Shown here: piece by piece, positions 13,341 through 51,454 of the stretch
Numbering within the stretch: position 1 is the stretch's first letter
How the letters are laid out: each line of letters opens with the position of its first letter
Assembly: GCA_030390025.1 (NCBI GenBank)
Contig: CM059425.1
Coordinates: 68,882,001 to 68,946,000, forward strand
Length of the DNA: 64,000 bases
From: Squalus acanthias
Lineage: Eukaryota
Direction: 5' to 3'
Notes under the pieces: generated by a model
Databases searched by the model: none
What the model was told of the DNA's origin: nothing
Seen by the model: only the letters and a program-made list of their open reading frames with translations
Made by a program: the position numbers and the translations under genes

Positions 13341-14444
13341 AGCCATTACTCAAAGTATCACAGCACAGATTTAGTTTTCAAACAACTCCCACCACAATTC
13401 ACCTCCCCTTTTAAAAGGTGCAGGCTGCCTTTAAGTAGCGCAAGCCACTCGCGATATCGAGCCCTCTGCTGATGCATGCAGCCAATGAACAACGCAGGTA
13501 GTGCTGGTTGCATGCAGCAATCATGTAAAACAGCAGGCAGAACGAATGTAACATTTTGCCTGCATGGGTACTGTGATCCCCATCACCCATTTTCGGTGGT
13601 TATCTAATTTAACCCCCTTGCTCTCTGCACCTCTCCCTGACAGCACAGCCAAGATCAGGAAGCTGCTAGCTGAGAATTCGGGGGATTGAGCCGGTATCCC
13701 TCCTTCATATGACATACTGCATGGAAGGAATAATATACAGTGTACAGACTCTTCCACACAACCCAATCATTGGAAAACTCACGTAGAAATCACACAAAAA
13801 AATAGTGGCAAAGCCTGATGGGACACCGTGCATTTAAGAGGTATAAAGTAAAGTCACAAGTCCAAATTAATGTAACTTGCACAGCAAATGCTTCCTTGTC
13901 CACCTGAATGTATCTATTGAGTCATAATTCTTACTAACTCCTTGCACTAGCCTGCCAACCGCTGATCAGGTATCCAGTGAGCTGTTATCATATTTTTCCA
14001 GCGTTTCATTATTTAGGCTCCACTGGCTGTCTACATTTTGCAACTCTCAAATGGAGATATGGTAAACGTGAGAAATATGATAAGCCTCTGTGGCATGTTG
14101 ATGTGCGTTTGTAATCTTGGACTTCAGGCGACATGAAACCAGGTTTTCCTTGTTAAAATCAAATCGAGTTCACTGAGCCAAGTAGCTCCTGCCAAAAAAT
14201 TGCAAGTTCAATCCGTTTTGTTTCTGAGATATTAAAATGGAAAGTAAACTGAATTGGCAGACTCAACATTGCTGAGTTGACCCCCTGCAGGGAGTAGGTC
14301 ATAGAGCAGATTGGGAGGCACTCTGCACTAGCCATAGGAGATAGCAGGATTAGTGAGATAATGCAGGCTGAGGGTTAGTGGATGCAGATGTACAAAATCA
14401 CCATGGCATCCCTGTAAAGCAGCAGATAGCCAGGAGCTTCCTTA

Positions 14445-14938: not shown

Positions 14939-17910
14939 CTATTCTAATCCCATTTTCCAGCACTTAGTCCGTATGCTATGGCGTTTCAAGTGCTCATCTA
15001 AATCCTTCTTGAATGTTGTGAGGGTACCTGCCTCTACCACCCTTTCAGGCAGTGAGTTCCAGGTTCCAACCACCCTCTGGGTGAAAAAGTTTTTCCTCAA
15101 ATCCCCTCTAAACTTCCTGCCACTTACCTTGAAACTATGCCCCCTGGTTATTGACCCCTCTACTAAGGGGAAAAGTTCCTTTCTATCTATCCTATCTATG
15201 CCCCTCATAATTTTGTACACCTCAATCAGGTTCCCCCTCAGCCTTCTCTGCTCTAAGGAAAACAACCCCAGCCTGTCCAGTCTCTCTTCATAGCTGAAGC
15301 GCTCCAGCCCAGGTAACATCCTGGTGAATCTCCTCTGCACCCTCTCCAATGCAATCACATCCTTCCTATAGTGTGGCGACCAGAACTGCACACAGTATTC
15401 CAGCTGTGGCCTAACTAGCGTTTTGTACAGCTCCATCATAACCTCCCTGCTCTTATATCCTATGCCTCGGCTAATGAAGGCAAGCATCCCATATGCCTTT
15501 TTAACCACCTTATCTACCTGTCCTGCTGCCTTCAGGGATCTATGTACATGCACACCAAGGTCCCTCTGATCCTCTGTCCTTCCTAGGGTCCTACCATTCA
15601 TTGTTTATTCCCTTGCCTTGTTAGTCCTCCCAAAATGCATCACCTCACACTTTTCAGGGTTAAATTCCATTTGCCACTGTTCTGCCCATCTGACCAACCC
15701 GTCTATATCATCCTGTAGCCTGAGGCTTCCCTCCTCGCTATTTACCACTCCACCAATTTTCGTGACATCTGCGAACTTACTGATCATACCTCCTACATTC
15801 ATATCTAAATCATTATTGTACACTACAAACAGCAAGGGACCCAGCACCGATCCCTGCGGTACACCACTGGACACAGGCTTCCAGTCACAAAAGCAACCTT
15901 CGACCATCACCCTCTGCCTCCTGCCACTAAGCCAATTTTGGATCCAATGTGCCAAATTGCGTTGGATCCCATGGGCTCTTACCTTCTTGACCAGTCTCCC
16001 ATGCGGGACTTTGTCAAAAGCCTTACTGAAGTCCATGTAGACTACATCAACTGCATTACCCTCATCCACACACCTAGTCACCCCCTCAAAAAATTCAATC
16101 TAATTGGTTAGACATGATCTGCCCCTGACAAAGCCATGCTGACCATCCTTGATTAATCCTTGCCTCTCCAAGTGGAGACTAATTCTGTCCCTCAGAATTT
16201 TTTCCAATAATTTCCCTACCACTGATGTTAGGCACACTGGCCTGTAATTCCCTGGTTTATCCCTACTACCCTTCTTGAATAATGGTACTACGTTAGCTGT
16301 CCTCCAGTCCTCTGGCAGCTCCCCTGTGGCCAGAGAGGTTCTGAAAATTTGTGTCAGCGCCCCTGCAATCTCCTCCCTTGCCTCACACAGCAGCCTGGGA
16401 TACATCCCGTCAGGGCCTGGGGATTTATCCACTTTTAAGCCCGCTAAAACCGCTAGTACCCCCTCCCTCTCAATACTAATTTGTTCAAGTATATCACAAT
16501 CCCCCTGCCTGATTTCTATGCCTACATCGTCCTTCTCCATAGTGAACACAGATGCAAAATATTCATTTAAAACCTCACCTACATCTTCCAGCTCTACACA
16601 CAGATTGCCACTTTGGTCCCTAATGGGCCCTACTCTTTCCCTGGTTATCCTCTTGCCCTTAATATACTTATAAAACACCTTGGGATTTTCCTTTATTTTG
16701 CCCACCAGTGTTATTTCATGCCCCCTCTTCGCTCTCCTAATTTCTTTTTTAAGTACCCCCCTGCACTTTCTATACTCCTCTAGGGCTTCCACTGTTTTTA
16801 GTCCTTTGTATCTGCCAAAAGCCTCCCTTTTTTTCCTAATCCATTCTTGTATATCCCTTGACATCCAGGGTTCCCTGGGCTTGTTGGTCCCACCCTTGAC
16901 CTTTACGGGAACATGTTGACGCTGTACTCTCTCTATTTCCTTTCTGAATGACTCCCACTGCTCTGATATGGATTTTCCTACAAGTAGCTGATCCCAGTCC
17001 ACTTTGGCCAGATCCTGCCTTATCATATTAAAATCGGCCTTCCCCCAATTTAGAACCTTTATTTCCAGTCCATCTTTGTCCTTTTCCATGACTACCTTAA
17101 ATCTCACCGAATTATGGTCACTGTCACCAAAATGCTCTCCTACTGACACTTCTACCACTTACCCGGCTACATTCCCTAGAATTAGGACCTCTCTCTTGTA
17201 GGACTTTCTACATGCAGGCTCAAAAAGCTCTCCTGGATGCACTTTAAGAATTCTGCACCCTCTAAGCCTTTCACACTCTGACTATCCCAGTTAATATTGG
17301 GGAAGTTGAAATCCCCTACTATTATTACCCTATTATTTCTACACTTCTCTGAGATTTGCCTACATATCTGTTCCTCTATCTCCCCATGACTGTTTGGGGG
17401 CCTATAGTACACTCCCAGCAAAGTGCTTGCCCCCTTTTTGTTTTTAAGTTCTACCCATATGGCCTCATTAGAGGAACCTGCTAAGATATCATCCCTCCTT
17501 ACTGCAGTAATTGACTCCTTGATTAATATTGCGACACCCCCTCCTCTTTTACACCCCCCTCTGTCTCGCCTGAAGATTCTATACCCCAGAATATTAAGCT
17601 GCCAGTCCTGCCCCTCCCTCAACCATGTCTCTGTGATAGCAACAATATCATACTCCCATGTGTTCATCAACACCTTCAATTCATCTGCCTTACTCGCAAG
17701 ACTCCTTGCATTAAAATAAATGCCATCCAGCCTTACCATACTCCCTTGTGCCGTTACATATTTGCTCTGCCTTCCAGACTGACTTGTTTTTTCCTCTATA
17801 TTTGGCTGTGCATCACCCCCTACTATAGCTCCACTCCGTATCCCATCCCCCTGCCAAGTTAGTTTAAACCGCCCCCCCCCCCCCAACAGCACTAGCAAAC
17901 CTCCCCGCAA
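14939..17910 (-). pseudogene. CR1 ORF2: APE endonuclease plus reverse transcriptase (several frameshifts)
   Basis: YFNARSL, AITETW, GVYYRPP, GDFNFP, SDHN, KSPGPDG, YMDFSKAFDKVPH, GVPQGSVLGP, KFADVTK. Confidence 0.93.
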
Positions 17911-18782
17911 GGATGTTGGTCCCGTTCCGGTTCAGGTGCATCCCGTCCGACTTGTACAGGTCCCACCTTTCCCAGAAGCAGACCCAGTGATCCAGGAAAC
18001 TAAAGCCCTCCCTCCTGCACCAACTCTTTAGCCACGCATTCATCTGCTCTATCCTCCTATTCCTATACTCACTAGCACGTGGCACCGGGAGTAATCCACA
18101 GATTACAACCTTTGAGGTCCTGCTTTTCAATCTGCTACCTAGCTCCCTAAATTCTTGTTGCAGGACCTCATCCCTCTTTCTACCTATGTCGTTGGTACCA
18201 ATGTGAACCACGACCTCTGACTGTTCGCCCTCCATCTTCAGAATGCCCTGCAGCCGTTCAGTGACATCCTTGACCCTAGCACCAGGGAGGCAACATACCA
18301 TCCTGGAGTCACGTCTGCGGCCGCAGAAACGCCTGTCTGCACCCCTCGCTATTGAGTCTCCTACCACTATTGCCCTTCCACTCTTACTCCTCCCCCCTTG
18401 TGCAGCTGAGCCACCCACAGTGCCGTGAACTTGGCTCTGACTGCACTCCCCAGAGGAACCGTCACTTTCACCGTTTTCCAACAGAGAAAAACGGTTGTTG
18501 AGTGAGATGCACTCTGGGACTTTCCTGACTACCTGCCTGCCCCCCTTCTTCTGACTGGTGGTCACCCATTCTGTCACTTTCTTAAGCTGCTATCCATGTA
18601 ACTCTCAGTCTCGCGGATACACCACAGTGCCTCCAGCTGACGCTCGAGCTCCGAAAACTGGATCTCAAGTTGGCCAAACGTTGGCACTTACTGCACATGT
18701 GGTCATCCTGACTGCAAGAAGCGTCTAGGAATTCCCACATGCTGCAGGCCGTGCAACGCATGGGACTGAGGTCCCCTGTCAT
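17864..18782 (-). pseudogene. CR1 ORF1: Cys-rich N-terminus plus SGNH/GDSL esterase
   Basis: CTACSMWE...CSKC, IVVGDSIARG, VVHIGTND, DGMHLN. Frameshift near 18600. Confidence 0.88.
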
Positions 18783-19992: not shown

Positions 19993-21212
19993 GACAATGA
20001 GGAGGTGGGGACAGTGGCAGCAGAGGCGGAAAGAAATATCTTTCTTGTAGACTACAATGATGATAACAATGAGCCCGATAATGGGAATAATCAGTGGCAG
20101 GCCACACAGGAGTCCTAAATTAATAAGCAGAACCTCAAGGGTAATAATCTCTGGATTACTACCTGAGCCACGTGCAAATTGGCATATGGTCAAGCAGATC
20201 AGAGAGTTAAATGCGTGGCTCAAAGAGTGTTGTGGGAAGGAGTTTCAATTAATGGGGCACTGGCACCAGTACTGGGGAAAGAGGGAGCTGTTCCGTTGGG
20301 ACGGGCTCCACTTAAACTGGGCTGGGACCAGCGTCCTGGCGAATCAAATAATTAGGGCTGTAGACGGGGCTTTAAACTAAAAAAGGGGGGGGGGAGGGGT
20401 CAGGAGAGGGGAAATTTAGAAATCTAAAGAGAAAGGTCAAGGCAATAGAGCAGTGTAGCGATTTGGGTAAAAATAAGCAGAGTGTGACAGGAAGGGACAG
20501 AGAGTTTAACCGTAGCAGTGCAGCAGAGAATAAGGTCAAAGCAGGGAATAATGGTAAAAAATTTAAATTAAAGGCCCTTTATCTGAATGCACGAAGCATT
20601 CGTAACAAGATAGATGAACTAGTGGCACAAATAGAGATAAATGGGTTTCATCTAATAGCTATTACAGAGATTTGGTTGCAAGGTGACCAAGGTTGGCAAC
20701 TAAATGTTCCAGGGTACTTGACATTTCAAAAAGACAGGCAGAATGGAAAAGGAGGGGGAATAGCCCTGATAATAAAGGATGACATAAGGACAGTAGAGAG
20801 AAAGGATCTCGGCTCGGAAGATCAGGAAGTAGAATCAGTATGGATGGAGTTAAGGAATAACAAGGGGCAGAAAACACTGGTGGGATTAGTATATAGGCCC
20901 CCTATCTGTAGCTATACCGTTGGACAGAATATTAATCAAGAAATAGTAGGAGCTTGTAAAAAAGGTAATGCAATAATCGTGGGGGACATTAATCTTCATA
21001 TAGACTGGACAAATCAAATTGGCAAAGGTAGTCTGGAGGACGAGTTCATGGAATGCATCCGGGACAGTTTCTTAGAACAATACGTCATGGAACCAACCAG
21101 GGAACAGATTATTTTAGATCTTGTATTGTGTAATGAGACAGGGTTAATTAGCAATCTCATAGTAAAAGATCCTCTGGGGCAGAGTGATCATAATATGATA
21201 GAACTTCACATT

Positions 21213-21975
21213 GGCCCAGAAATTCGCCTCTCCGGCTTGCCGCGGGGGTAAGGATCGCGCGCGCTCTTTCCTACCGCGCCTGCCGTTGTGTTTTGGGCCC
21301 ACGGGAACTTCAGCTCCTGGGCCTCTCCCAACTGCCGGCGCGCAGTGCTTGCGTGTCCCAGGGGCGCAGTTAGTGCGATGCGTCCCCTGGGATCACGTGA
21401 GGGCCATGGAGAGCCAATGGCAGCAGACCATCTTTCATTCATAGATTTGACAGGAGACCTGTCAAATCTGTGAATTGAAATCGGCCCCAAAACAACACCT
21501 AAACTTAAAATAATTTTTTTTAAAAACCATCACATTTATAAAATAACTATAGTTAAATAAATTAACTACTTTAAACAAAAATTTAAATTTTTGAAGAAAT
21601 TAAAATACTTTTTAAGTGATAAAAATAAACTTACCTTTCTTTAAAGTATCTAAAAAAGATAACCCTGTTGAAAATTTTTTAAATTATACTTAATTAACCA
21701 CTTACCTTGTTGAAAATGGGTCTTGCGCCTCCTTTTTAATAGTGTAGTTTCTTCGATACTTACCCTCACGTAGAAACTTAAAAAAAAATCTAAGTTTGCT
21801 TCGTGCGCGCAGCCACTACCACGCACGCGGTTCACCTAGGAACCGCCCCCTTCACCATACCGGAAGTTCCGGTTTCCCGCGCATGCGCAGTGCATGCAGG
21901 AAACCGGCACTTCGGGAAGCATTACGGGTGAGTACAGAGCGCGTACTCACCCGGGAAGGGCCAAATTTTCGGCCC
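21213..21975. mobile_element. Harbinger-type MITE (763 bp)
   Basis: TSD ATT (21210-21212, 21976-21978) and imperfect TIRs GGCCCAGAAATT / AATTTTCGGCCC. Excision restores CR1 ELHIKFESD. Confidence 0.9.
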
Positions 21976-22596
21976 ATTAAGTTTGAGAGTGACTTGCCTA
22001 AGTCCGAAAACTAGAGTCTTGGGGGGAAAAATTCGGTTGATTAGCGCCTCCCGTTAGCGCCCTAGAGGGCGCTAATGGGGCGTAAAGCAACTAGCGCCCG
22101 GGTGCGGCGATGTTTGCGCTGCTCGCGAAATTGACCAGACATTTTGTGGCGCGCTAAACACTACCGCCACGATCTCCTGTGCTCACAGATCATGACGTTA
22201 GTCAAGCGTGCAACGCCCCAGTAGTGCCCTGGATTGGATACTGAGTGGTGCCCCCTGCCTTTCCGCCTGTCGCTAGCAACGACAGGTAGAGGGGAATGTT
22301 TTGCAGTCAGGTAGGGACTGGGGGAGCGCTATTTAAAGTCAGCCTCTTCCTGCCTTTTTTTGTCAGCGACATTTTTGCACCACGCATTGAGAGAGAGAGA
22401 GAGAGAGAGAGACTTCTGGAGAGATTCAACGCTGTGTGAAGGAGTTTTGGGTACTGAGCATCATTTTGCAGGTTCTTTTTGATTTGACCTTCATCGCATC
22501 GATTTACAAGAGACTGTGAGAGCTGCACTGATTTGGGGTGTCGTCCTGCACCTGCAGAATCGGAGGCATCAGAGGCGCAGAGAGAGAGTGGCAAAC

Positions 22597-23684
22597 ATGG
22601 CCAGAGGGAGGAGGGCCAACAGGCCTCTGCACAGGAGACCTTACCCTCCCAGGGTATTCCGGGAGCAATTCTCCTACATTCATTTGTCTGAGGAGCAGTG
22701 TTTGCGCAGGCTGCGCTTCAGCAAGGAGGTGGTCACTGAGCTCTGCCACCTGCTGCAACCAGATCTGCAGCCTCAACTGAGGACCAGGGCGTCTCTGTGT
22801 CGGTGGCAGTGAAAATGGCTCTGAATTTTTATGCCACCGGCTCCTTTCAAGCATCTATTGGGGACATCGCCAATATCTCCCAGTTCGCTGTCCATTGCTG
22901 TATCTGGGAGGTGACAAATGCCCTGTATAAAAGGAGATGGCAGTACATCTCTTTCCCCATGACCCGGGCCAAACAGCATGAACGCGCATGTGGCTTTGCT
23001 AGGATAGCAGGCTTCCCCATGGTGCAGGGCGCCATTGACTGCACACATGTGGCATTGCGGGCACCGCATGAAAATGCAGAGATTTTCCGAAACCGCAAGG
23101 GCTACCACTCCTTAAATGTGCAGTTGGTCTGTGACCACAGACAGCTGATACTCGCCGTCAATGCCCGCTATCCTGGCAGCAGCCACGATGCTTTCATCCT
23201 GCGCCAGACTGGTGTGCCAGACCTTTTCCAGGCACCGCATCACCCAAGTGGATGGCTCCTCGGGGACAAGGGTTATCCACTCTGCACCTGGCTGATGACA
23301 CCGCTCCGTAACCCCAACACCCCTGCCAAGCTGTGGTAAAATGAGAGCCATATCGCCACCAGGAACATAATTGAGCAGACTATCGGCGTGCTCAAGCAAC
23401 GGTTCCGCTGTCTGGACCACTCAGGAGGAGCCCTGCAGTACTCTCCTGAGCGAGTCTCCCTCTTCATAGTTGTATGCTGCATGCTTCACAACCTGGCAAT
23501 CCTGAGGACCCAGCCAATGCCACCAGGGATTGGTGCACCACCGGAGGAAGAGGAACAGGAACAGGAGGATGAGGAGGAGGAAGAGGAGGAGGATGATCAG
23601 CAGCGGCACCAAGGTGGGAGGGAGGCCCACAATGTTGCCACTGCAAGGGCCGTCCGTCAACGGCTGATAACAAGCCGCTCCTAG
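22597..23684 (+). pseudogene. Harbinger transposase with a +2 frameshift (~22796) and premature TAA (23337-23339)
   Basis: GAIDCTH, LGDKGY and RNIIEQTIGVLKQRF DDE motifs. Lesions are defined by comparison with 47537-48616. Confidence 0.92.
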
Positions 23685-23980
23685 GCCCCTACTCAGAAGA
23701 TGGCTTCTGGCATGGAGAACAACATCATGGAAAGCAACCCGCACCCCCTATAGCCGGCCAAAGCTGCAATGATTCCAAAGGCCAAAAATGTTAATTTTGA
23801 ATACAACTTTTTTATTTAACAAACTCTGTGTGTGTCATTTATTCAGGACAAACAATTAGAAACAAAGACAACAAATCATGAACTAACAGAACTGGTTCTC
23901 ACAAGCTGGAGAAAAACACCAAAACAGTAAACAAATGTAATCAGACGAACCTCGACCTTTAGTACAAACATTCCCACCAT

Positions 23981-25844
23981 TTATTTAGACCTCCTACTGT
24001 TTGCCCTTTGAGGGTGATCTCCATCCCCTGCGCATTTCCCCCCTTCCCACCCAACTGCTCCTCCATAATGGGCCCCAGTGGCTGCAGCAAGGTTGGTGGA
24101 AGGCTGCTGAATGTCAGATGCTAAGACTACAGATGCCCTTGAAGGACGCCCTCGACCAGCTCTGGGCCTGGAGGCCCCGGCTGCAGACTGCACCAACTCT
24201 GCATGGGCTGGCTGTGTTGCAGGTGGTGGCAAGTGCAATGGGGAAGTGACAGTGGTGGGAGCAGGAATGCTGTCCTCCTGAGAGAGGACAGCACCTTCCT
24301 GCTCGACTGGCACTCCCATGGGGTAGTACCTCAGCATCCAGAGCAATCTGCTCGAGCACAGATTGCTGGCCTGCAGCGGCACCGTGAGAGCCCCGGGGCA
24401 ATGTGGCCGAACCAGCGACAATGGCAGCAGTCACTGCTTGTGTTACATCAATCTGAGACTGCATGAGAGCAGTCTGAGATTGGATGGCAGCAGCCAGTGA
24501 CTGAATTGCAGCACTAAGCCGTTGCGTTGTGTCGGCCTGTGCTGCAGCGGAGTGCTCCACACTCCTTGCCAGTCCATCAATGCTTTCGGGCACCCTTGCC
24601 ATTGCACCCATGAGCTCAGTGTGCATGCTCAAGGCCTGGCTATTCATTTCCACGATGACGCATTCCTCCTCTGCGTCCAGTGCAGCAGGACTCGCTTGCC
24701 TACTCTCCCTCCGGGGAGAATGCCCCTGAGCTTCCCTACCCCCATGGCATTGCTGCAGCCCGCTGGGTCCCGGAGCTTCACCCTCATCAGACCCTTCCCC
24801 CCTGCTCCCCTCCATGGAAGGCGTGGTCCCAGTGTGTGCATGGGCTCCCTCGGGAGACGCAGGCGCTGAGGCTCCGGCTTCCTCTTCCTCCTCGCCTGGG
24901 GTGTCGCTCCCACTGGTTGGTTGAGGGACAGGTTGCTCAGCTGGTGGTTCACTATCTGAAAGCAGGGAGGTACAAGGGTGGCTTTAGCGTCAGGACAGGG
25001 GGGCAGTAAGGGAGTAAGGACTGGAGACATTTAGTAAGTTGGATTGAAAGTGTAAAAGGCTGGTGTTGTGAGGGACAAGTGGAATGAGAGAGGAGAGAAA
25101 GCTGATGAACTTACCATTGCTGTCCCCAAGGGGGTCGATCTCTCCAGCGGCCGCGGCACCTATCACCTGGCTGGCAACGATCCTGTGGACGCGCGCCTCC
25201 AAATCGCTGAGGGTCTGCAGCTGAGCCGGCCTTCCACCCGTCCATTGCTGCTGCCGCCTATTATGAGATAGCTTGGCCTGCAAGAAAAAGGACGGCGTCT
25301 GAGTAAATGTGCAGCCATGGTCTTGCCTGATGTGCCTCCCATAGTTGAATAGCCCTTAATGTATACAGCTATGTGCTTGCCTGATGTGCCTCCCATAGTT
25401 GAATAGCCCTTAATGTATGCAGCCATGTGCTTGCCTGATGTGCATCCCATAGTTCAATAGCACTTAATGTATGGAATGTGCGTGCATGTTTTATGAGATG
25501 GCCATAGGTCTTGGATGAGTGTTGGGCATTTGGGGTTTTTAAACCCTCTGGGCACAGAGTGAGGTTGAGATGGAGGGATGTAGAGGTATTGAAAAGCAGC
25601 CACTCACCCTGACCACCCGAGTGAGGTCGTTGAACTTCTTCCGACATTGTGTGTGGGTCCTGGGCACCATGCTCCTGGAGGAGACGTGCTGAGCCACCTC
25701 CCTCCACATTCTTCTATATTCGCGTGGCACTGGCCTCCTGCCACGCTGTGGGTACAGTATTGATCTTCGGCGCTCCACTGCGCCAACCAGAGCCACCAAA
25801 GCCCAGTCGCTGAAGCGCTGAGCTCGTTCCCTGGGCCTCTCCAT
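23981..25844 (-). pseudogene. Harbinger Myb/SANT-like gene; exons 25844-25608, 25277-25115, 24955-~23981
   Basis: MERPRERAQRFSDWALVALV...WREVAQHV...QCRKKFNDL. Canonical GT-AG introns in phase; frameshift near 24310. Confidence 0.87.
25311..25472. repeat. Tandem repeat, 3 x 54 bp, in intron 1 of the Myb-like gene
   Basis: CTTGCCTGATGTGC recurs at 25322, 25376 and 25430. Confidence 0.9.
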
Positions 25845-28800
25845 AGTTCTTTCCAGCAGAATTGAAGTACAGGTCTGTCCAGGCCGAGATTCAAGGCTGC
25901 AATGACCAGGGTGTGGGTGGAGAGCAAGATTGACCCTCCCCTTTAAGAACTGGCCACGCCAGTGTGTCTGTGTTCCATTGCTAACTGACATCACCTGAGC
26001 TTCGCCAGCGCTCTGAGGTAGCGCCTCGCTTCTCGGCGTTAGTGCCTTAAGAGAGGTGTGTAGCGCCTGATTTAGCGCTCAAATCACCTCTAGGGGCGAT
26101 AGAGGCCAAGTTTGCAGTCGGAGGCGATAATTAGTGCCAGGCGCTAAACTTTGCGCCCAGCCGATAATTGCGTCCCAAACGGGGCGATACCGAATTTCTC
26201 CCCCTTAAACTTAAATAAAGCCAATTACATAGGTATGAGGGGTGAGTTGGCTAAGGTAGATTGAAAAAATAAATTAAAAGGTATGGCGATAGATAAGCCG
26301 TGGCTAGCATTTAAAGAAATATTTCATAATTCTCAACAATAATACATTCCATTGAGAAACAAAAACTCCACAGGAAAAGTGAGCTAACTAAAGAAGTTAA
26401 AGATAGCATTAGATTGAAAGATGAAGCTTATAATGTTGCGAAGAATAGTAGTAAGCCTGAGGATTGGGAGTTTGAGAAACCAGCAAAGGATGACCAAAAA
26501 ATTGATAAAACGGGAAAAAATAGAATATGAGAGAAAACTAGCAAGAAATATAAAAGCAGATTGTAAGAGCTTCTACAAGTATGTAAAAAAGAAGAGAGTA
26601 GCAAAAGTAAACATTGGTCCCTTAGAAGCTGAGACAGGAGAAATTATTATGGGAAATAAGGAAATGGCAGAAACGTTAAACAAATATTTTGTATCTGTCT
26701 TCACAGTAGAAGACACAAAAAGCATACCAAAAATGATGGGTAACCAAGGGTCTAATGAGGGTGAGGAACTTAACTTAATTAATATAAGTAGAGCAAAAGT
26801 ACTAGAGAAACTAAAGGGACTAAATGCCGACAAATCCCCTGGACCTGACGGCCTACATCCTAGGGTTCTAAAAGAGGTGGCTGAAGAGATAGTGGATTCA
26901 TTGGTTTTGATCTTTCAAAATTCCCTAGATTCTAGAACGGTCCCAGTGGATTGGAAGGTCGCAAATGTAACACTGCTATTCAAGAAAGGAGGGAGAGAGA
27001 AAACAGGGAACTACAGGCCAGTTAGCCTGACATCAGTAGTAGGGAAAATGCTGGAATCCAATGTTAAGCAACTGTTATCAGGGCATGTAGAAAATCATAA
27101 CATGATTAGGCAGAGTCAACATGGCTTTATGAAAGGGAAATAGTGTTTGACAAATTTATTAGAGTTTCTTAAGGATGTAACTAGCAGGGTAGATAAAGGG
27201 GAACCAGTGGATGTAGTATATTTGGATTTCCAAAAGGCATTCGATAAGGTGCCACATAAAAGGTTATTACACAAGATTAGGGCTCATGGGGTTGGGGGGT
27301 AATATGGATAGAGGATTGGTTAACAGACAAAAAACAGAGAGTAGGGATAAACAGATCTTTTTCAGGTTGGCAGGCTAGTGGGGTACCGCAAGGATTAGTG
27401 TTGGGGCCTCAGCTATTTACAATCTATATTAATGACCTAGATGAAGGGACCGAGTGTAATGTATCCAAGTTTGCTGATGATACAAAGCTAGGTGGGACAG
27501 TAAGCTGTGAGGAGAACACAAAGTGTCTGCAAAGGGATGTAGATAGACTAAGTGAGTGGGCAGTAAGGTGGCAGATGGAGTATAATATAGGGAAATGTGA
27601 GGTTATTCACTTTGGTAGGAAGAATAGAAAAACAGAATATTTTTTAACTGGTGAGAAACTTTCAAATGTTGGTGTTGAGAGAGATTTGGGTGTCCTCATG
27701 CAAGAAACACAAAGCTAGCATGCAGGTACAGCAAGCAATAAGGAAGGCAAATGGCATGTTGGCCTTTATTGCAAGGGGGTTGGAGTATAAGAGTAAGGAA
27801 GTCTTGCTACAATTGTACAGGGCCTTGATGAGACCACACCTGGAGTACTGTGCACAGTTTTGGTCTCCTTATCTAAGGAAGGATATACTTGCCTTGGAGG
27901 CAGTGCAACGAAGGTTCACTAGATTGATTCCTGGGATGAGAGGGCTGTTCTGATGCAAGATTGTGTAGAATAGGCCTATACTCTCTGGAGTTTAGAAGAA
28001 TGAGAGGTGATCTCATTGAAACATACAATATTCTGAAGGGGATTGACAGGGTAGATGCTGAGAGGTTGTTTCCCCTGGCTGGAGTGTCTAGAACTAGGGG
28101 GCATAGTCTCAGGATAAGGGGTAGGCCATTTAAGACTGAAATGAGGAGGAATTTCTTCATTCAGAGGGTTGTGAATCTGTGGAATTCTCTGCCCCAGAGG
28201 GCTGTGCATGCTGAGTCTTTGAGTATATTCAAGGCTGAGAAAGATAGATTTTTGGACTCTAGGGGAATCAAGGGATATGGAGATCGGGCGGGAAAGTGGA
28301 GTTGAGGTCGATGATCAGCCATGATCTTATTGAATGGCGGAACAGGCTCGAGGGGCCGTATGGCCTACTCCTGCTCCGAGTTCTTATATTCTTATGTTCT
28401 TATGGAGCAAGATCCTGCCCCATGTTCCTCTGCCCTAACCCCGCTTGATATCACCCCTTGTATCACTTGCTTCCTCAGTTCCATGCACCAGCACAGATAT
28501 TTTCGCCTAGGAGTAAGTAGATAGTCTAAGTGGGGTTGTGGCACCAGCTGATTCACGGAGCACAGGGGTACTGGAGGAGTGAAAGTGTAACCATCCCAGT
28601 GGAGGCTATAGAGATGGCTGCCCTTGGCTCGGGAGTCATGGGACTCAGATCTCATGGGTACTCATCTGTGAAAAAGAATGTTTGAGCAACTTCATACCTA
28701 AGTGCAGGCACTGAACTTAGTGTCTGAGGATGTGTGGCAACTGACAGGAGTGACACAGGAGTATGCATCTCTCATTTGCAGCAATATCATGGCAGATCTT

Positions 28801-41906: not shown

Positions 41907-42544
41907 TGTAAGCTTTTTATTTTGACTGGCATTAAATTGACAGCAAGACCAATTCTTTTGAAACAATTTGGAATAAGTTAATTCAACACACACACCCATG
42001 CACATCAAAACAATAGTCTACTGGTATCCTATGACTCTACTCGATTACAACAGGTAAGGTAATGGGTTAGATTTAAACAGACTTGTACTTCCCTGAGTCA
42101 AGCAATGCATGTGGCCTTTTTACTTGCTTCTTGGTCTGGTCTGTAGAGGGAGGGCTTCCTGCTTTTCCGTGTGGTCATCCAGAGAGAGAGCAAGAGCCTT
42201 TGGGTTCCTTGTTTTACATCTTTTTAAGTCCATTGTCTCTAGTCTAAATTGCTGAGACCCCAGGATTGGGTCTTAGTTTCATGGCTGTTCTTGATTGACT
42301 TTCCTTTGAACATGTGTCTGTCTGCAGTGGCTGGTGCCATTTCTTGATTAAGTTAGTTGTTAACACCTTTTAATGGCTCTTGAGTTTCGATGGGTTTTCG
42401 ATGGGGGTTATCCTGTTATGCAGGTTTCCTTTGTTAAGTTTCGCTGGGAGATCCATACACATCAAGTTCATCTTTATTACATACATCTTATATTAATAGT
42501 CTCAAGTCCATCACTCATCATAAACATATATTTTTATTCTTACA
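41907..42544 (-). repeat. 3' LTR (638 bp)
   Basis: 41997-42544 is repeated at 44874-45111 plus 49189-49518. Minus-strand AAGGCGGGGAA polypurine tract lies just upstream. Confidence 0.92.
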
Positions 42545-42592
42545 GATTCCCCGCCTTGAGGGAGAAATATTCTTATTGACCCCTCATTTGGT

Positions 42593-42940
42593 TTATCTCC
42601 TCAGGGTTCGCATATGGTGGTTCAGTTTCCTAAGGAGTTTTCTCAGGTAGCAGATCATGATGATCCCCACCACTACGATTATGGCTTGTGCCAGTATCAT
42701 AAGCATTGAGAGGGTTCTGAGCCAGGGGTGTTGTCCTACATTATATAACAGGTTAACGTAATCCTGGACCTGTTTAAACAGTGATTTCAAATAAAACTGT
42801 TGGACTATAACCTGGTGTTGTGCGACCTCTCAATTCTGTTTAAACAGGCCAGCCTCCTCTCTTATGGACAAGAGGTTCTGGGGCAGTTCATGTATTACAT
42901 CCCGTCCCTCTTTATTTATTCCTGTCAGGATCCCCTTAAG
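42593..42940 (-). pseudogene. env-like C-terminal remnant (helical segment, transmembrane anchor, basic tail)
   Basis: After removing the 42782-42835 insert and one duplicate: LKGILTGINKEGRDVIHELPQNLLSIREEAGLFKQVQDYVNLLYNVGQHPWLRTLSMLMILAQAIIVVVGIIMICYLRKLLRKLNHHMRTLRR*. Confidence 0.6.
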
Positions 42941-44870
42941 CTGTTACTCTTTGGCAGTTTTTGAACTGGTTAATATGATACCATTTCTTGTACTTAACGC
43001 CCTTTTCCCCCGGTAACTGAATCAAATAAACCGCGGGGTTCAATCGGTCTATAATCGTATGCGGTCCCCACCACCTGGGCTCAAAGGCAGGCTTCTTTTT
43101 CCCATAATTTGGAATCATTATGGTGTCCCCCACCTGATACTCAAAGGGACGTACTTTCTTGTCAAATTACCTTTCAATTTGTCTTTTTGACTTCTCCAAT
43201 TTCGTGGCCACAAATCGATTCATCTGATCGGTGTGATCTACCACTTGTTCCAGCCACTTGGAACTACATGGTTCCATTTTCAAGGGGCTCATCCCCGTTA
43301 GTGTTAGCTGGCCTGGCGTTCTCATGAGTCTCCCCGTCATGGCCTGATATGGGGAGACTCCTGTTGTTTTATGAGGTGTGGACCTCATTGCCATTAAGCA
43401 CATTGGCAGCATGTTAGCCCATTGAGTGGGGCGGTCCGCACACAATTTTTTTAACATTAACTTGAGGGTCCTGTTCCCCCTTTCGACCCCTCCAGACGAC
43501 TGGGGGTGGTGAACAATATGTAGTTTGTGTTTTATCCCCAACATTTCCTGCAGGTGGGTAAAAATCTTACTGGTAAAGTGCGAACCTTGATCACTGTCCA
43601 CTTGTACCGGTACTCCCCACCTACAAAACACATGATTTAATAGTGTTTTGGCTGCCGTGATTGCGGTGTTGGAGCGGCAGGGGAATGCTTCGATCCATTT
43701 AGTGAATTGATCCACCACCACTAGGGCATGCTGAAAATTGCCTTGCGCCTGTGGAAGTGGCCCAATGAAGTCTATCTGGAGGTGAGTCCATAGCCCTTGA
43801 GGTGGGGGCTGTTTTGGAAGTGGGTAATTGCAGTCGCTGTATTATCTCCACCTTGTGGGAGTCGGGGGACGATCCCTCTGGAGAAATGGACACTCCCAGA
43901 AAGGTGACCCGTTCTTTTACCAACTGAGCCTTACGAGGATTCACCTTTAGTCCCGCCTCAGCCAACAATGTCAACAGTTCATGCAAAAGGGACAGATGCT
44001 CCTCCATGTTATCAGTTGCCAGCAGTAGATCGTCTACGTACTGTAGCAAGCAGGTAGGGCGGGAAAAGTCTCAAAACTGCAGCCATTCTTTTGTGGAAGA
44101 TCGTGGGGGCATTGTGGAACCCCTGAGGCAGGCATGTCCAGGTGTAGCTCTGGTCCTCAAATGTGAATGTGAATTTGTACTGGTCCTCCTTTTTAACAGG
44201 GATACTCCAGATCCATTGGCAATGTCGAGGGTCGAGAAGTACATGGAAACAGCAGGAATTTGAATATGGCGGGAGCTTCTCTTACTACCGGTGAGCAGGC
44301 TGGCGTTACAGAATTTAACTTTCTGTAATCAATAGTCAGTCGCCTGCTGCTATCAGGCTTTTTAACCGGCCATGTGGGTGAATTGGTTGTGAAGGTGCCT
44401 GTCCTAACAACACCCTGCTCGACTAGGGATTTTATGGTGTCTCGGATGTAAGGGTGACTCTCCCTTGGGATGGGGTATTGTTTAGTGAATGAGTGGGGGG
44501 GTCCCTCAATAAACTCTTCGCCTGCCATTTTTCCACAATCATGCTTGCATGTGGAAAACACCACTAGGTGTTCCTGAATTAGTTTTGCCACAGCTTCGTT
44601 TTCGCTCCCCGGAGGGTCATACTCGGATGGCTTTTTAATAGCAAAAACCGAGTGAGCATCTGAAATTTCTATCACTCTTGCATTATTTCTCAATCCCATC
44701 CAAACACAGTCCCGATTGTAATCTATTACCACGCCATACTGATCCAACACATCAGTCCCTAAAATTCCCCTTCCGTCGGGGGTGGTCATCAGCATCGGTG
44801 CTGGGACCTTACAGGTGAGGCCTCCCAACTGAAGTTCAGAGGCCTTCCCTGTATATGCGGTGGTTGTATC
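42936..44870 (-). pseudogene. pol: pol remnant: protease C-terminus, RT, integrase core and C-terminal module; RNase H deleted
   Basis: GILGTDVL, KQYPI, NSPTWPVKKPD, LTIDYRKLN, LQYVDDLLLA, VVDQFTKWIEAFP, DSDQGSHF, HPQSSGGVERGNRTLK, PRWWGPH. Confidence 0.92.
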
Positions 44871-45472
44871 TCACATGCACATCAAAACAATAGCCTACTG
44901 GTATCCTATGATTCTACTCGATTACAACAGGTAAGGTAATGGGTTAGATTTAAACAGACTTGTACTTCCCTGAGTCAAGCAATGCATGTGGCCTTTTTCC
45001 TTGCTTCTTGGTCTGGTCTGTAGAGGGAGGGCTTCCTGCTTTTCCACGTGGTCATCCAGAGAGAGAGCAAGAGCCTTTGGGTTCCTTGTTTTACATCTTT
45101 TTAAGTCCATTGGGGGAGAAATTCAGTATCGCCCCGTTTGGGGCACAATTATCGGCTGGGCACAAAGATTAGCGCCTGCCGCTAATTATCGCCTCCGACT
45201 GCAAACTTGACTTTTATTGTCCCTGGAGGTGATTGGAGCGCTAAATCAGGCGCTACACATCTGTCTTAAGGCGCAAAGGCCGAGGAGCGAGGCGCTAACT
45301 CAGAGCGCGGGCGCAGCGCAGGTGCTGTCAGTTAGCGATGGAACACAGACACACTGGTGCCGGACAGTTCTTAAAGGGGAGGGTCGATCTTGCGCTCCAG
45401 CCATACCCTGTTCATTGGAGCCTTGAGTCTCGGCCTGGAGAGACCTGTGCCTAAATCTTCCAGCCAAGGACT

Positions 45473-47294
45473 ATGGAGAGGGTGAGAGAACAAGCTCAGC
45501 GCTTCAGCGAGCGGGCCTTGGATGCTCTGGTTGGCGCGGTGGAGCGCAGAAGATCTATACTCTTCCCTGAGAGTGGCAGGAGGCCTTTGCCACGTGAGTA
45601 CAGAAGAGAGTGGAGGGAGGTGGCTCAGAGCGTCTCCTCCAGGAGCATGGTGCCCAGGACCCACATACAATGTCGAAAAAAGTTCAACGACCTCACTCGG
45701 ATCGTCAGGGTGAGTGGCTTTTTTTCAATACCTCTCCATCCCTCCATCTCAACCTCACTCTATGGCCAGAGGGTCTTAAAACCCCAATGCCCAACACTCA
45801 TCCAACACCTATGGCCCTCTCATGAAACACACACGCACATTCCACACTTTGCATACAGTAAGGGCTATTCACCTATGGGAGGCACATCAGGCAAGACCAT
45901 GGCTGTATATTTACTCAGACGCTGTCCTTTTTCTTGCAGGCCAAGCTATCTCATAATAGGAGACAGCAGCAACGGACGGGTGGAGGGCGGCCTCAGCTGC
46001 AACCCCTCAGCGATCTTGAGGCGCCGTCCACAGGATTGTGGCAAGCCGGGTGATCGGTCCCGTCGCCACTGGAGACGCCGACCCCTTTCTGGACAGCAAT
46101 GGTAAGGCCATCACCTTTTTGTCCTCTGTCGTTCCACTTGTCCCTCACACCAGCCTTTGACACTTTCAATCCAACTTACTAAATCGCTGCACTCATTCCT
46201 CCCTTACTGTCCCCCTGTCCTCACGCTAAAGCCACTCTTGTACCTCCCTGTTTTCAGATGGTGATTCACCAGCTGAGGAGACGGGCCCTCAAGCTGCCAG
46301 TGGGAGTGAAGCTGCAGGCGAGGAGGAAGATGAAGGCGGAGCATCAGCGCCACCCTCTCCCGAGGAAGCCCATGCCCACACTGGGAACACGCCTTCCCTG
46401 GAGGGGAGCAGGGGGGAAGGGTCTGATGAGGGTGAAGCTCCAGGACCCAGCGGGCTGCAGCAACGCAATGGGGGTAGGGAAGCTCGGGTGCCTTCTCCCC
46501 GGAGGGAGAGTATGCCAGCGAGTCCTACTGCACTGGACGCAGAGGAGGAGCGGCTGATCGCTGAAATGAACACCCAGACGGTGGACATGCACACTCAGCT
46601 CATGGGTGCAGTGGGAAGGGTGCCCAAATGCATTGAATCACTGACAAGGAGTGTGGAGCACTTCGCTGTAGCACAGGCGGATGCCACGCAAATGTTTAGT
46701 GCTGCAATTCAGTCACTGGCTGCCGTGACCCCATCTCTGACTGCTCCCATGCAGACTCAGATTGAGGCCACGCGAGCACTGACTGCTGCCATCCTCGCTG
46801 GTTCGGACACATTTCCCCGGGGCTCTCACCGCGCCGCAGCAGGCCAGCAATCTGTGCTCCAGCAGATTGCTCCGGATGCTGAAGTGCTGCCCCATGGGAG
46901 TGCCAGTGTGTCGGTCGAGCAGGGAGTTGCTGTCCTCTCTCAAGATGACAGCATTCCTGCTGCTACCACTGTCACTTCTCCACTGCACTTGCCACCGCCT
47001 GTAGGACAGACTGCTGCCGCCCATGCAGAATTGGTGCAGTCTGCAGCCGGGCCCTCCAGGCCCAGAGCAGGTCGAGGCTGTCCTTCAAGGGCATCTGCAG
47101 TCTCAGGTTCTGACAATCAGCAGCCTTCCACCAGCCTTGCTGCAGTCACTGGGGTCCCATTACGGAGGAGCAGAAGGGGGGGAAGTGCGCAAGGGAAGGA
47201 GATCACCCTCGAAGGGCAAAAAGTAGGAGGTGTGACAAAATGTTGGTCATTTTTTTTATTAAAGGCCGAGGTTCGTGGTCAAACTTTTGTTTAG
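45473..47294 (+). pseudogene. Harbinger Myb/SANT-like gene; exons 45473-45709, 45940-46101, 46258-47294; 1-nt deletion in exon 2
   Basis: MERVREQAQRFSERALDALV...WREVAQSV...QCRKKFNDL. GT-AG sites are conserved with copy A; exon 2 is 162 nt versus 163 nt. Confidence 0.87.
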
Positions 47295-47536
47295 TGTTTT
47301 GGACATTATCTCCAGGTTGTGAGAACTAGTTATGTTAATGACTTTTTTTGTGTTTCTTTCTATTAGTTTGTCATGAGGAAATGACACACACAGAGTTTGT
47401 AAAATAAATAAGTTTTTGTATTCAAAATGTACATGTTTGGTCTTTGGAATTATTGCTGCCTTGGCCGGCTTAGGGGTTGCAGGTTGGTTTCATTCATGTT
47501 GTTCTCAATGGCAGAAGCCATTTCCTCAGCAGGGGC

Positions 47537-48616
47537 CTAGAAGCGGCTTGCTATCAGCCGTTGACGGACGGCCCTTCCAGTTTCTACATTGTGGGCCTCC
47601 CTCCCGCCTTGGTGCTGCTGATGATCATCCTCCTCCTCTTCCTCCTCCTCTTCCTCCTCCTCCTCTGGTGGTGCTCCAAGGCCTGGTGGCATTGGCTGGG
47701 TCCTGAGGATTGCCAGGTTATGCAGCATGCAGCACACAACTACGAAGTGGGAAACTCGCTCAGGCGAGTACTGCAGGGCTCCTCCAGAATGGTCCAGACA
47801 GCGGAACCGTTGCTTAAGCACGCCGATTGTGTGCTCAACGATGTTCCTGGTAGCTTGATGGCTCTCGTTGTACCGCAGCTCAGCAGGGGTGTTGGGCGTA
47901 CGGAGCGGTGTCATCAGCCAGGTGCTCAGTGGATATCCCTTGTCCCCGAGAAGCCAACCAACTGGCTGATGCGGTGCCTGGAAAAGTTCTGCCACAGTAG
48001 TCTGGCGCAGGATGAATGCATCGTGGCAGCTGCCAGGATAGTGGGCATTGACAGCGAGTACCAGCTGTCTGTGGTCACAGACCAACTGAACGTTTAAGGA
48101 ATGGAACCCCTTTCTGTTGCGGAAATCCTCGGCATTCTCATGCGGAGCACGCAAAGCCACATGCGTGCAGTCAATGGCGCCCTGCACCATGGGGAAGCCC
48201 GCTATCCTAGCAAAGCCCATTGCGCGTTCTTGCTGCTTGTCTGGGGTCATGGGGAAAGAGATGTACTCTCGTCTCCTTTTAAAGAGGGCATTTGTGACCT
48301 GACGGATGCAGCAATGCACCGCGAACTGGGAGATATTGGCGATGTCCCCAGTAGCTGACTGAAATGAGCCAGTGGCATAAAAGTTCAGAGCTACTGTGAT
48401 CTTCACTGCCACCGACAGAGACGTCCTGGACCTCAGTTGAGGCTGCAGATCTGGCTGCAGCAGGTGGCAGAACTCAGTGACCACCTCCTTGCTGAAGCGC
48501 AGCCTTCGCAAACACTGCTCCTCAGACATGTTAATATATGTGAATTGTTGGCGATATACCCTGGGAGGGTAAGGTCTCCTGTACAGAGGCCTGTTGGCCC
48601 TCTTCCGTCTGGCCAT
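47537..48616 (-). CDS. Intact PIF/Harbinger DDE transposase (359 aa from the first in-frame ATG conserved in copy A)
   Basis: Stop-free ORF with GAIDCTH, NRKGFHSLNVQLVCD, PGSCHDAFIL, LGDKGY, RNIVEHTIGVLKQRF and an acidic tail. Confidence 0.93.
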   Translation of the reverse strand: MARRKRANRPLYRRPYPPRVYRQQFTYINMSEEQCLRRLRFSKEVVTEFCHLLQPDLQPQLRSRTSLSVAVKITVALNFYATGSFQSATGDIANISQFAVHCCIRQVTNALFKRRREYISFPMTPDKQQERAMGFARIAGFPMVQGAIDCTHVALRAPHENAEDFRNRKGFHSLNVQLVCDHRQLVLAVNAHYPGSCHDAFILRQTTVAELFQAPHQPVGWLLGDKGYPLSTWLMTPLRTPNTPAELRYNESHQATRNIVEHTIGVLKQRFRCLDHSGGALQYSPERVSHFVVVCCMLHNLAILRTQPMPPGLGAPPEEEEEEEEEEEEDDHQQHQGGREAHNVETGRAVRQRLIASRF

Positions 48617-50712
48617 GATTGCCACTCTCTCTCTGCGTCTCTGTGTCCTCCGATTCTGGTGGTGCAGGACGACGCCCCCAATCAGTGCAGCCCCCACAGT
48701 CTCTTGGCAATCAAAGTTATGAAGGTCAAAAACCAAAGTACCTGCAAAGTTATGATCAGTAGCCAAAACTACCTCACACAGCGTTGACTCAATGCAGAAG
48801 TCTCTCTTTCTCTCTCTCCGAACGAGTGGTGCAAAAATGTCTACCACAGAGAAAGACAGGAAGAGGCCCCCTTTAAATAGCGCCCCCCCATCCCCACAGC
48901 GACTGGGGAGCGTTCCAGTCTTCCGGTCGTTGGTTGCGCCAGGCGGAAAGGATGGGGGCGCCACTCAATTTCCGCTCCGGGGCGCCACAAGGGCGATGCA
49001 CCCTCGTATGACGTCAAGAACTGCGTGCGCAGGAGATCGCGGCGGTAAAGTTTAGCGCCGCCGCAAAATGTCTAGTTAATTTCGCGAGCGGCGCAAACAT
49101 CGCTGCGCCCGGGCGCCAGTTGCTTTGCGCCCCATTAGCGCCCTCTTAAGGCACTAACGGGAGGCGCAACCAACTGAATTTTCCCCCCATTGTCTCTAGT
49201 CTAAATTGCTGAGACCCCAGGATTGGGTCTTAGTTTCATGGCTGTTCTTGATTGACTTTCCTTTGAACATGTGTCTGTCTGCAGTGGCTGGTGCCATTTC
49301 TTGATGAAGTTAGTTGTTTGTTAACACCTTTTAATGGCTCTTGAGTTTCGATGGTGAGTTTCGATGGGTTTTCGATGGGGGTTATCCTGTTATGCAGGTT
49401 TCCTTTGTTGAGTTTCGCTGGGAGATCCATACACATCAAGTTCATCTTTATTACATACATCTTATATTAATAGTCTCGAGTCCATCACTCATCATAAACA
49501 TATATTTTTATTCTTACAAACCCTACGACTGCCCTCCGACATAATTGGCCACATAAGATGTCGGAGGAGGAGGATTCTCTGCCCTACAAGGCTGACAGGA
49601 AATTCCCAGAAATTGCGGTAACCTGTGGCCTATTAAATGAGGCAACCACCAAACAGCAAGAACAGTGTCCACACAAGGTACCTGTCTGCTGTATGCTCAC
49701 AAACTCTCAGGAAGTGGCTGCTGGTCTGGGCACTTGGGTGACAGAGTGAATGAATGATTAAGTAAGGAGGTAAAGAATGAGAGTTCAAGGGATGATGCAG
49801 CAGCAGCAGACCAGGCATTTTAGGCAGACACACATCTTCTCTCATGTTACTTTTTCCAACATATGTCCATTTTTTAAATCTGTTTGCAGGAGAAGATGAC
49901 CCATAACAGGCAGCAGCCATGCATGCAGCTAACTTGCAACCCTTCACTCCTTATAAGGGGAGGGCCCTGGAGATCCTGGGTATAGAGGCAATGGGTGAGG
50001 TTGAAGGCCTCTCCCCAGTTTATAACTGGCATCATCCCTTGATTTCTCATACTTTACCTCCTTACGTAATCATCCATTCACTCTGTCATACATAGGCATA
50101 CACTGCAGCACTGAGGTATAGCATACTAGAATATGTTGCCATGTAAGCTCTTTCTCAAGGAGTGTCACAGCAAACATTGTAAAATCTGTTGTGCTTCTGC
50201 TCCCGTAGGTTCCTAAGAGGAAGAGGTGTCAGAGCCCAATGCTGAGCCTTAACGGAGTGTCTCACAGCACCCTGTACCATCCCCTCCTACAGTGGCAAAC
50301 ACACACATTCATTCTGTGGGGGTCAGTTGCTACATTGCAGGAGGAAGCATTTGGTGAAACACAGAACACGAGTGAAGAGGAGCAATTACATATGCAATTG
50401 GAGGGTCAAGAGCTCCTTCAGTTACTGGACCTAACAGGACGTGCCTACTGACACAGTTTGGTCATTTTAGTCTGCGCTTATGAGTTTGGGATACCTATGG
50501 AGGAGTCCGCACCCCACAATTGTGTAATGCTGCATGACCACCGGACCAAGCTGCAGACCACCTTTGAAAGCATAGCCTCTTCAAAGCCCTTGGCTGAGGT
50601 TCAAAGCTCAAATTTGGCTTCTTTAATAAGTACTTTGACTGGCACACTCGAGACCCTAAGTTCCATTTTGCAATCATTTGTTTTTTCTGCATTCAATATA
50701 TTAACAAACCAG

Positions 50713-51454
50713 GGGGGGAAGAATTCGGTTGCTTTGCGCCTTCTGTTAGCGCCCTCTTAGGGCGCTAATGAGGCGCAAAGCAACTAGCGCCAGGGCGCGG
50801 TGCCGCCAACGCCTCCTGCAAAATTCAGCGGGCGGTTAGCGGTGGCGGTAACCATTAGCGCCCGCAGCGCTGTGCCGTCGGCGATGACATCATCGCCATG
50901 CACAGCGCCCCTCTCACGCCCCGGCCGCGATCTTTGGTAGTGTCCCCTGACTTACTGCCGGACGCTATGTCCAACGGGGTCAGGGGGGCCTACCTGCGGC
51001 CGGGGCGGCGCTAATTAAAGGCGAGGTGCCGGGCAGCCATTTTTGTTGCTGGCCGCCTGCCAGCACCTGCCCCCGTTGCCTTCCCCGGCCCCCGTGAAGC
51101 CCCCCCGTGGGGTGCCGGCTGCGCTCCGTGAGCCCGGCACTTCTCTTGAGTGCCGGGCTCTTTTGCCGGCACTCCGATCCCTGGTGGCCCTGCTGGGCCC
51201 CGGATCGCGCTGCGCAAGGCCCCTCCCCTTTAAGAAGGGGAGGAAGGACTGCAGTACCGCGGCGCGACATGCCGCAGCGCCATTCCCTCGCAGCGCCCCA
51301 AGAGGGAGGCGGGGTGCTTCCAGTAGTGCCCCGCTTATCTCTTGGGGCGCTACTAATGAATTTCGGCCACGGGGGCGCGAATTTTTTCGGGGCTCTAAAA
51401 GTAGCGTCCCAGCGAAGTTAGCACCCAAAGGGGGCGCGACTCAATTTTTCCCCC
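50713..51454. mobile_element. Non-autonomous Harbinger derivative (MITE) related to copies A and B
   Basis: First ~100 bp match 22022-22130. TIRs GGGGGGAAGAATTCGG / CTCAATTTTTCCCCC; probable TSD CAG. Confidence 0.85.

Follow-up and report, generated by a model that had tools for sequence, protein, structure and literature searches.

We analyzed a 64,000-nucleotide stretch of the Squalus acanthias genome (assembly GCA_030390025.1, contig CM059425.1, positions 68,882,001 to 68,946,000; hereafter the window), which contains two copies, A and B, of a PIF/Harbinger DNA transposon that encodes a DDE transposase together with a Myb-like protein. In our interpretation, to which we assign a probability of roughly 0.78, copy B is a decayed offshoot of a large family of two-gene Harbingers; the proteins of an intact source copy likely inserted it, and it later acquired private lesions in both of its genes. 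An earlier model reading of the letters (the sequence-only reading) had taken B for a near-intact element whose lesions complement those of A; B is not near-intact, as lesions are present in both genes. Copy B itself is ordinary, and the interest lies in its family, with its intact two-gene copies, selection along a ladder of subfamilies, and a likely mutation hot spot at the transposase start codon. Coordinates are those of the window.

Structure and insertion of copy B

The features of copy B are as follows.

45109..45111, plus strand: target-site duplication ATT, left of B (empty site at 42232-42234)
45112..49188, no strand assigned: Harbinger copy B, full length and decayed
45112..45127, plus strand: left terminal inverted repeat, 14/16 match to the right one
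45473..45709, plus strand: Myb-like exon 1, SANT/trihelix domain (PF13873, E = 2.9e-09)
45940..46101, plus strand: Myb-like exon 2, missing 1 nt at 46024 (private to B)
46102..46257, plus strand: intron 2 of the Myb-like gene, GT-AG, which contigs from three probable RNA runs (X2, X5, and X9) show spliced
46258..47226, plus strand: Myb-like exon 3 up to the family stop, with a second frameshift at ~47176
47537..48697, minus strand: DDE transposase frame, 386 codons long when counted from the start codon of the family, with D176, D252, and E288 present and an internal ATG at 48616
48695..48697, minus strand: family start codon, GTG in B; no other column of the element is as homoplastic as its first base
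49173..49188, minus strand: right terminal inverted repeat
49189..49191, plus strand: target-site duplication ATT, right of B

The termini of B lie at 45112 and 49188, and the terminal 16-mers match as inverted repeats at 14 of 16 bases; at 16 bp, they are shorter than the 25 to 50 bp usual for Harbinger terminal inverted repeats according to PMC9179366. The element is flanked on both sides by ATT, and an uninterrupted paralog of its flanks in the same window (41997-42544) has a single ATT at 42232-42234. Because this empty site exists in a sister long terminal repeat (LTR), the duplication is not a chance match, and the inverted termini and clean duplication described by the sequence-only reading stand. 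Among the 92 family copies that passed our end filter, the 3-bp duplication is exact in 74, and these define a palindromic target, W-A-R-A-N-W-Y-[WWW]-R-W-N-T-Y-T-W.

The coding content is also that of a PIF/Harbinger element. The minus-strand frame 48964-47537 is free of stops and matches DDE_Tnp_4, the HARBI1-like transposase domain (E = 6.8e-41), with all three catalytic residues in the motifs IDCTH, GDKGY, and IVEHT. Exon 1 of the second gene matches the Myb/SANT-like profile Myb_DNA-bind_5 above the cutoff. The nearest protein relatives of the transposase all come from sharks and rays, at no more than 69% identity, and a sequence-based comparison with solved structures returned no match (best E = 0.1). 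B is a genuine Harbinger insertion and represents a new family of a known type.

The sequence into which B inserted comprises three parts.

41999..42544, minus strand: uninterrupted LTR of the host retroelement, which holds the empty site
42545..44875, minus strand: deleted interior of the host element, with broken reverse transcriptase (RT) and integrase fragments (RVT_1 and rve matches)
44876..49518, minus strand: second LTR of the host retroelement, split by B

The sequence interrupted by B and its uninterrupted paralog are the two LTRs of one deleted retroelement; therefore, B entered one LTR after the host element had integrated. The LTR pair differs at 8 of 551 columns, or 0.73% per LTR (95% range, 0.31 to 1.43%), which agrees with the private divergence of B, 0.76% (31 of 4,053 columns). 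The host element (41999-49518) has LTRs that are 98.5% identical and retains RT and integrase fragments, with no gag seen; the fragments carry what we take to be a mixture of Gypsy-like and retrovirus-like motifs.

Family size and intact copies

The 3.7-Gb genome was searched with exact 26-letter patterns at the transposase start. The young form of the pattern was matched 300 + 38 + 3 + 2 times and the older form 627 times, giving at least ~970 family members. A domesticated gene of the HARBI1/NAIF1 type does not fit these ~970 exact matches, nor the private changes of the copies, which are near neutral. For sequence comparison, 119 loci were taken from the best-40 lists of five probes and combined with A and B; 105 of the resulting 121 copies are near full length.

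In 30 of these 105 copies, both frames are open, with ATG starts and canonical splice sites. They include 23 of the 38 copies in the youngest sample and none of the 14 B-age or 14 A-clade copies. One of them, L054, has no private change in its transposase. Some caution is called for: the sample is biased toward copies near the probes, 16 of the 121 were dropped as interrupted or truncated, and an open frame is no proof of activity.

Lesions in copy B

In the family, the Myb-like gene consists of exons of 237 nt and 163 nt followed by a phase-1 exon 3, and it encodes a protein of 447 to 464 residues that terminates in a basic tail. GT-AG boundaries are present in nearly all copies and intron 2 is spliced, in keeping with the exon model of the sequence-only reading. 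That reading had seen a single lesion in the Myb-like gene of B, a 1-nt deletion near 46024. The deletion is indeed present in the assembly and is private to B (found in 0 of 31 other copies); the spliced frame that contains it stops after 116 codons. It is not alone, as a second frameshift, a net loss of 8 nt at ~47176, removes the basic C-terminal tail. The altered sequence at this site occurs once in the genome. We considered a common origin for this loss and an 8-nt loss in copy L055 and rejected it, since the breakpoints differ and the version in B is single in the genome. When DNA contig runs were compared with the 46024 region at 99% likeness, only pieces of 44 to 60 bp, from many copies, were recovered. 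Overall, the Myb frame is open in 47 of the 105 near-full-length copies and broken in both A and B.

The transposase of B is stop-free with its three DDE motifs, as had been described, but it is not intact. The family start codon, where the MGA-type N termini of homologs align, lies 27 codons upstream of the first usable ATG in B; it is ATG in 70 of the 105 copies and GTG in B and in A. At codon 76, a Leu-to-Phe change private to B alters a residue that is conserved as L in the other copies (65 of 65); none of 16 homologs has F there. PMC9392472 describes import of the transposase by the Myb-like protein via its N-terminal end; the lost N-terminal stretch of the B transposase may therefore matter. 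With two Myb frameshifts and a GTG start, B lacks the two uninterrupted genes with start codons that an autonomous copy has.

Transcripts were examined as assembled contigs, from which neither strand nor level can be read, and the type of each run was guessed. The predicted joint 46101/46258 (GT..AG) is spliced in contigs from three of four probable RNA runs, representing three studies. The intron 1 junction 45709/45940 was not among the joints listed in the probable RNA contigs, and one contig from X2 passes the exon 1 boundary unspliced. The contigs hold bases that are absent from B, at 46024 in four of four runs and at 47176 in three of four; therefore, the transcribed copies are not B. At 48697, they mostly read ATG.

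Copy A and the supply of transposition proteins

22022..26204, inverted relative to B: Harbinger copy A, older subfamily, both genes broken, GTG start at 22516-22518

Copy A aligns with B at 86.3% identity, with 66 of 79 residues alike in Myb exon 1, and its flanks (TTG/TTA) have one mismatch. Its transposase is broken, as the sequence-only reading had recognized, by a +2 shift near 22800 and a stop at 23337-23339. Its Myb-like gene lacks 8 nt near 24308 and 1 nt near 24072; the frame is lost near codon ~350, ends at a stop at codon 413, and lacks the family C terminus. Thus, the gene does read through exons 1 and 2 and much of exon 3 (~350 correct codons), as had been claimed, but it is frameshifted and not intact. 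The terminal branches of A (0.036) and B (0.015) place them in different subfamilies of different ages, and the A clade is older, with terminal branches of ~0.04. The first intron of the Myb-like gene contains a 54-bp tandem unit, present three times in A (25312-25473) and once in B (45850-45903). Young copies are longer overall, and the number of 54-bp units differs among copies. Copy A, together with a small element with inverted ends (~21213-21974), lies between the endonuclease and RT parts of the second open reading frame (ORF2) of one long interspersed nuclear element (LINE; 20376-27143).

The earlier proposal that A provides the Myb-like protein and B the transposase, each complementing the other in trans, draws on the open transposase frame of B with its three catalytic residues, on the ~350 correct codons of A, which retain the DNA-binding domain, and on a Harbinger family of Caenorhabditis inopinata in which the two functions are physically separated (PMC13668399). 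Such a pair requires that each copy keep the gene that the other has lost. An intact Myb-like gene is missing from A as well as from B, and in each copy the transposase start reads GTG, so their lesions are not complementary; moreover, the copies differ by 13.7%, and the probable RNA contigs are free of the lesions of B. A/B rescue is also unnecessary because 30 of the 105 sampled copies keep both frames open; with at least this many natural copies to draw on, the suggested rebuilding of a working pair from the window is not required. We consider complementation between A and B extremely improbable; A is dead, belongs to an older step, and has no particular tie to B. A different question is whether the family is still transposing now from its intact copies. 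The thirty copies with two open frames, L054 among them, and the spliced transcripts speak for it, but the closest independent copies are 0.77% apart across their full length and ~0.6% apart over 2,001 bases (calculated from bit scores), and none closer than 0.6 to 0.8% were found among the sampled copies and in the genome search. Closer pairs share their flanks and are duplications; L087, L089, L159, L162, and L168 represent a single insertion that segmental duplication has multiplied, flanks included, on small contigs and close to the starts of chromosomes. At the mutation rate of the epaulette shark, 7e-10 per generation (PMC10587355; another species, with a wide interval), even 0.27% corresponds to millions of generations, and the 0.76% of B to ~1e7 generations; therefore, low divergence does not equal recent time. 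Present activity is, in our view, unlikely. The sequence-only reading had called the family recently active, and its low-divergence copies bear this out in terms of sequence only, with no independent copies found below 0.6 to 0.8%.

Selection along the subfamily ladder

The tree of copies forms a ladder that leads from the A clade through intermediates to a burst of B-age copies (terminal branches, 0.015 to 0.025) and then to younger steps (0.005 to 0.01). Nonsynonymous (N) and synonymous (S) changes were counted per column against the commonest codon. In the transposase, the A-clade and B-age subfamilies are separated by 27 N to 43 S changes (ratio, 0.20), compared with 414 to 212 among private changes (0.61; p = 1e-5). 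In the Myb domain, the corresponding counts are 5 to 11 (0.15) and 152 to 53 (0.92; p = 7e-4). The steps between subfamilies are under purifying selection, and decay within copies is near neutral. Disabling events, too, are mostly private to one copy (73 of 85 in the Myb-like gene and 62 of 72 in the transposase); those shared by several copies turn up in clades distant from one another. New subfamilies would appear to have been founded by copies in which both genes worked and not by pairs of broken copies.

Several observations temper this conclusion. Between the B-age and first younger (Y1) subfamilies, the transposase has 15 N to 15 S changes (p = 0.08, or 0.02 with the Myb domain added), and between Y1 and Y2 the counts are 5 to 2, a weak signal between the younger steps. 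The C-terminal part of the Myb-like protein is unconstrained (0.80), the private ratio in the transposase is 0.61 rather than 1, and site counts were made without a correction for transition bias. As the bursts are star-like, few shared lesions would be expected in any case, and the distribution of lesions is a weak test.

In the youngest subfamily (L065, L080-L086, L124, and L131-L149), the right terminus is altered to …TTTTTAGCCC, and in L081 both ends have this form. Element ends appear to have been swapped among subfamilies.

The start codon of the transposase

Column 48697, the A of the transposase ATG, requires 21 changes on the tree; across 4,064 columns, the mean is 1.66 and the 99.9th percentile is 12. 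It is the most homoplastic column of all and does not lie in a CpG. Across the genome, the young subfamily has ATG 300 times; the first base is changed in 38 cases (22 TTG, 15 GTG, and 1 CTG), the second base in 3, and the preceding base in 2. Of 20 variant loci that we examined, 3 have a flank in common with a known cluster of duplicates, and the others differ in their flanks; taking ~20 independent first-base events against 3 at the second base gives p = 5e-4. Among the first 100 listed of the 627 older matches, the base is A in 46, G in 23, T in 22, and C in 9, with the other 25 letters exact. The increase of this changed fraction with the age of the subfamily fits a hot spot: the first base behaves as a clock-like site of mutation, likely after insertion, at ~20 times the background. 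Such a hot spot would tend to silence aging copies. Two points reduce the strength of this case: some of the 38 variants duplicate one locus (the flank-sharing cluster described above), and the 43 variant copies require 31 changes, compared with 39.6 when shuffled, indicating some clustering, while unresolved forks can inflate homoplasy.

The start codon stands in a context like that of a real insertion junction, namely, a full target half-site, TAT, and GGGGG, and it ranks 11th of 4,179 by the target matrix. The idea that it mimics a junction would rest on this resemblance in sequence. Three candidate causes of the excess were tried and rejected. Other G runs lack such an excess at that offset. 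Mutagenesis at true junctions does not fit, as single mismatches occur in 9 of 92 duplications, not clearly above divergence and not limited to the center base. Selection for a plain knockout of the start codon does not fit the second base, altered in only three copies. Our search of titles and abstract starts for literature on a start-codon hot spot in a transposase found nothing relevant, which is weak evidence of absence. The second most homoplastic column of B, 46467 (18 changes, to C or G), lies three bases before GGGGG and is partly a CpG effect.

An alternative to mutation after insertion is that source elements repeatedly switched to weak starts, lowering transposase output, and passed them to their daughters, so that the GTG of B is a tuned start. 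GTG, TTG, and CTG are the usual near-cognate starts, and all three variants are of this kind; the second base is rarely altered (3 versus 38), there is some clustering on the tree, and GTG is common among B-age copies. This idea is nevertheless doubtful: the nearest neighbors of most variant copies are ATG copies, the changed fraction climbs with subfamily age from ~11% to 54%, and the probable RNA contigs mostly carry ATG. The ladder calls for its own explanation. Vertebrate DNA transposons are described as evolving neutrally within genomes, with purifying selection acting at horizontal transfer (PMC7070016), and selection along a ladder is unexpected for a DNA transposon unless the family reinvaded repeatedly or some route favors working copies. 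Repeated re-entry from other hosts, each followed by neutral spread in trans, would accord with that account, with the finding that the longest branch (A to B) shows the strongest selection and the young steps show little, and with the presence of the sequence in runs under five organism labels and one metagenome. Set against it are the intermediates found between the steps of the ladder (from L108 to L090 toward A, and L041, L068, L064, and L040 toward B), the restriction of the closest protein relatives to sharks and rays, at 69% identity at best, and the view in PMC9179366 that horizontal transfer of Harbingers is possibly rare in vertebrates. We regard re-entry as somewhat less likely than not. 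The remaining proposal is vertical persistence as a master lineage of the LINE kind, with both genes under purifying selection and no re-entry, in which a start codon mutated by machinery of the element itself (~20 times the background, through mimicry of the flank-duplication-terminus junction: target half-site, TAT, GGGGG) would serve as an off switch, silencing aging copies while young intact copies carry the line on; we put this forward as an unlikely, if specific, scenario. A search of titles and abstract starts for ladder-like DNA transposon subfamilies found nothing relevant, again weak evidence of absence.

Other elements in the window and around family copies

50713..51454, no strand assigned: 742-bp noncoding element lying 1.5 kb from B, with termini like those of the Harbinger copies and a duplicated CAG

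The 742-bp element is likely a passenger of this Harbinger family. A third, more distant and decayed Harbinger lies at ~9800-13500; where it encodes the transposase, its DNA is ~68% identical to that of A and B, and it has a Myb_DNA-bind_5 match at 12950-13345. A LINE on the minus strand (14939-18589) has an esterase-type (GDSL) ORF1 and fragments of endonuclease and RT.

Elsewhere in the genome, the flanks of L032, L051, L054, L056, L110, L116, and others lie within an octamer repeat of the ATAGAGTC type. Short derivatives with 80 to 85% identity to the element ends are found within ~100 bp of the full copies L034, L037, L041, L045, L059, and L084. Independent copies are interrupted at the same internal points (L039, L059, and L075 near B position 46947; L039 and L117 near 48529), which suggests internal insertion hot spots near these positions.

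Relation to known systems

Harbinger3_DR is a zebrafish element (Sinzelle et al., 2008). Like the present family, Harbinger3_DR combines a DDE transposase with a Myb/SANT-like gene, terminal inverted repeats, and a 3-bp duplication. By analogy, the Myb-like protein would bind the element ends and bring the DDE transposase into the nucleus, where the transposase would cut and insert the element with a 3-bp duplication. The proteins of an intact source copy likely inserted B in this way into one LTR of the already integrated retroelement, and the ends of B may still be mobilized by the proteins of intact copies. The target of Harbinger3_DR, AAACACCWGGTCTTT, is likewise palindromic with A-rich outer arms (PMC3016246), whereas its center is CWG rather than the W-rich TAT, TTA, or ATA found here, as compared by description. 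Harbinger3_DR, the tested vertebrate Harbinger, is a reconstructed element (PMC9710019, PMC3016246, and PMC9392472); here, 30 of 105 sampled natural copies have both frames open, and dozens of two-gene copies are open to assay in their natural form.

Shark and ray proteins annotated as "putative nuclease HARBI1" (Pristiophorus, Heptranchias, Narcine, Mobula, and Carcharodon) share the DDE_Tnp_4 domain at 55 to 69% identity, the same MGA-type N terminus, and an acidic tail. Their labels are automatic and come without element structure, and the element in the window is multicopy, unlike the single-copy domesticated HARBI1. PMC9179366 reports that a search of the elephant shark revealed no Harbingers and calls for the examination of other cartilaginous fishes; in this genome, Harbingers are abundant. 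Harbinger-1M_cIno of C. inopinata belongs to the same superfamily and is the published case of supply of the two functions in trans, in which a single locus keeps the DDE gene (PMC13668399), in contrast to the many copies that keep both genes here.

A parallel to the ladder itself is the human LINE-1 master lineage, which likewise runs through successive subfamilies under purifying selection (PMC7070016). LINE-1 acts in cis via its RNA, and PMC7070016 argues that DNA transposons lack such a route. Purifying selection along a ladder within one genome runs counter to the neutral evolution described there. Should this selection and the hot spot at the start codon both prove true in the absence of horizontal transfer, they would reveal how a trans-acting transposon avoids being run down by its own broken copies.

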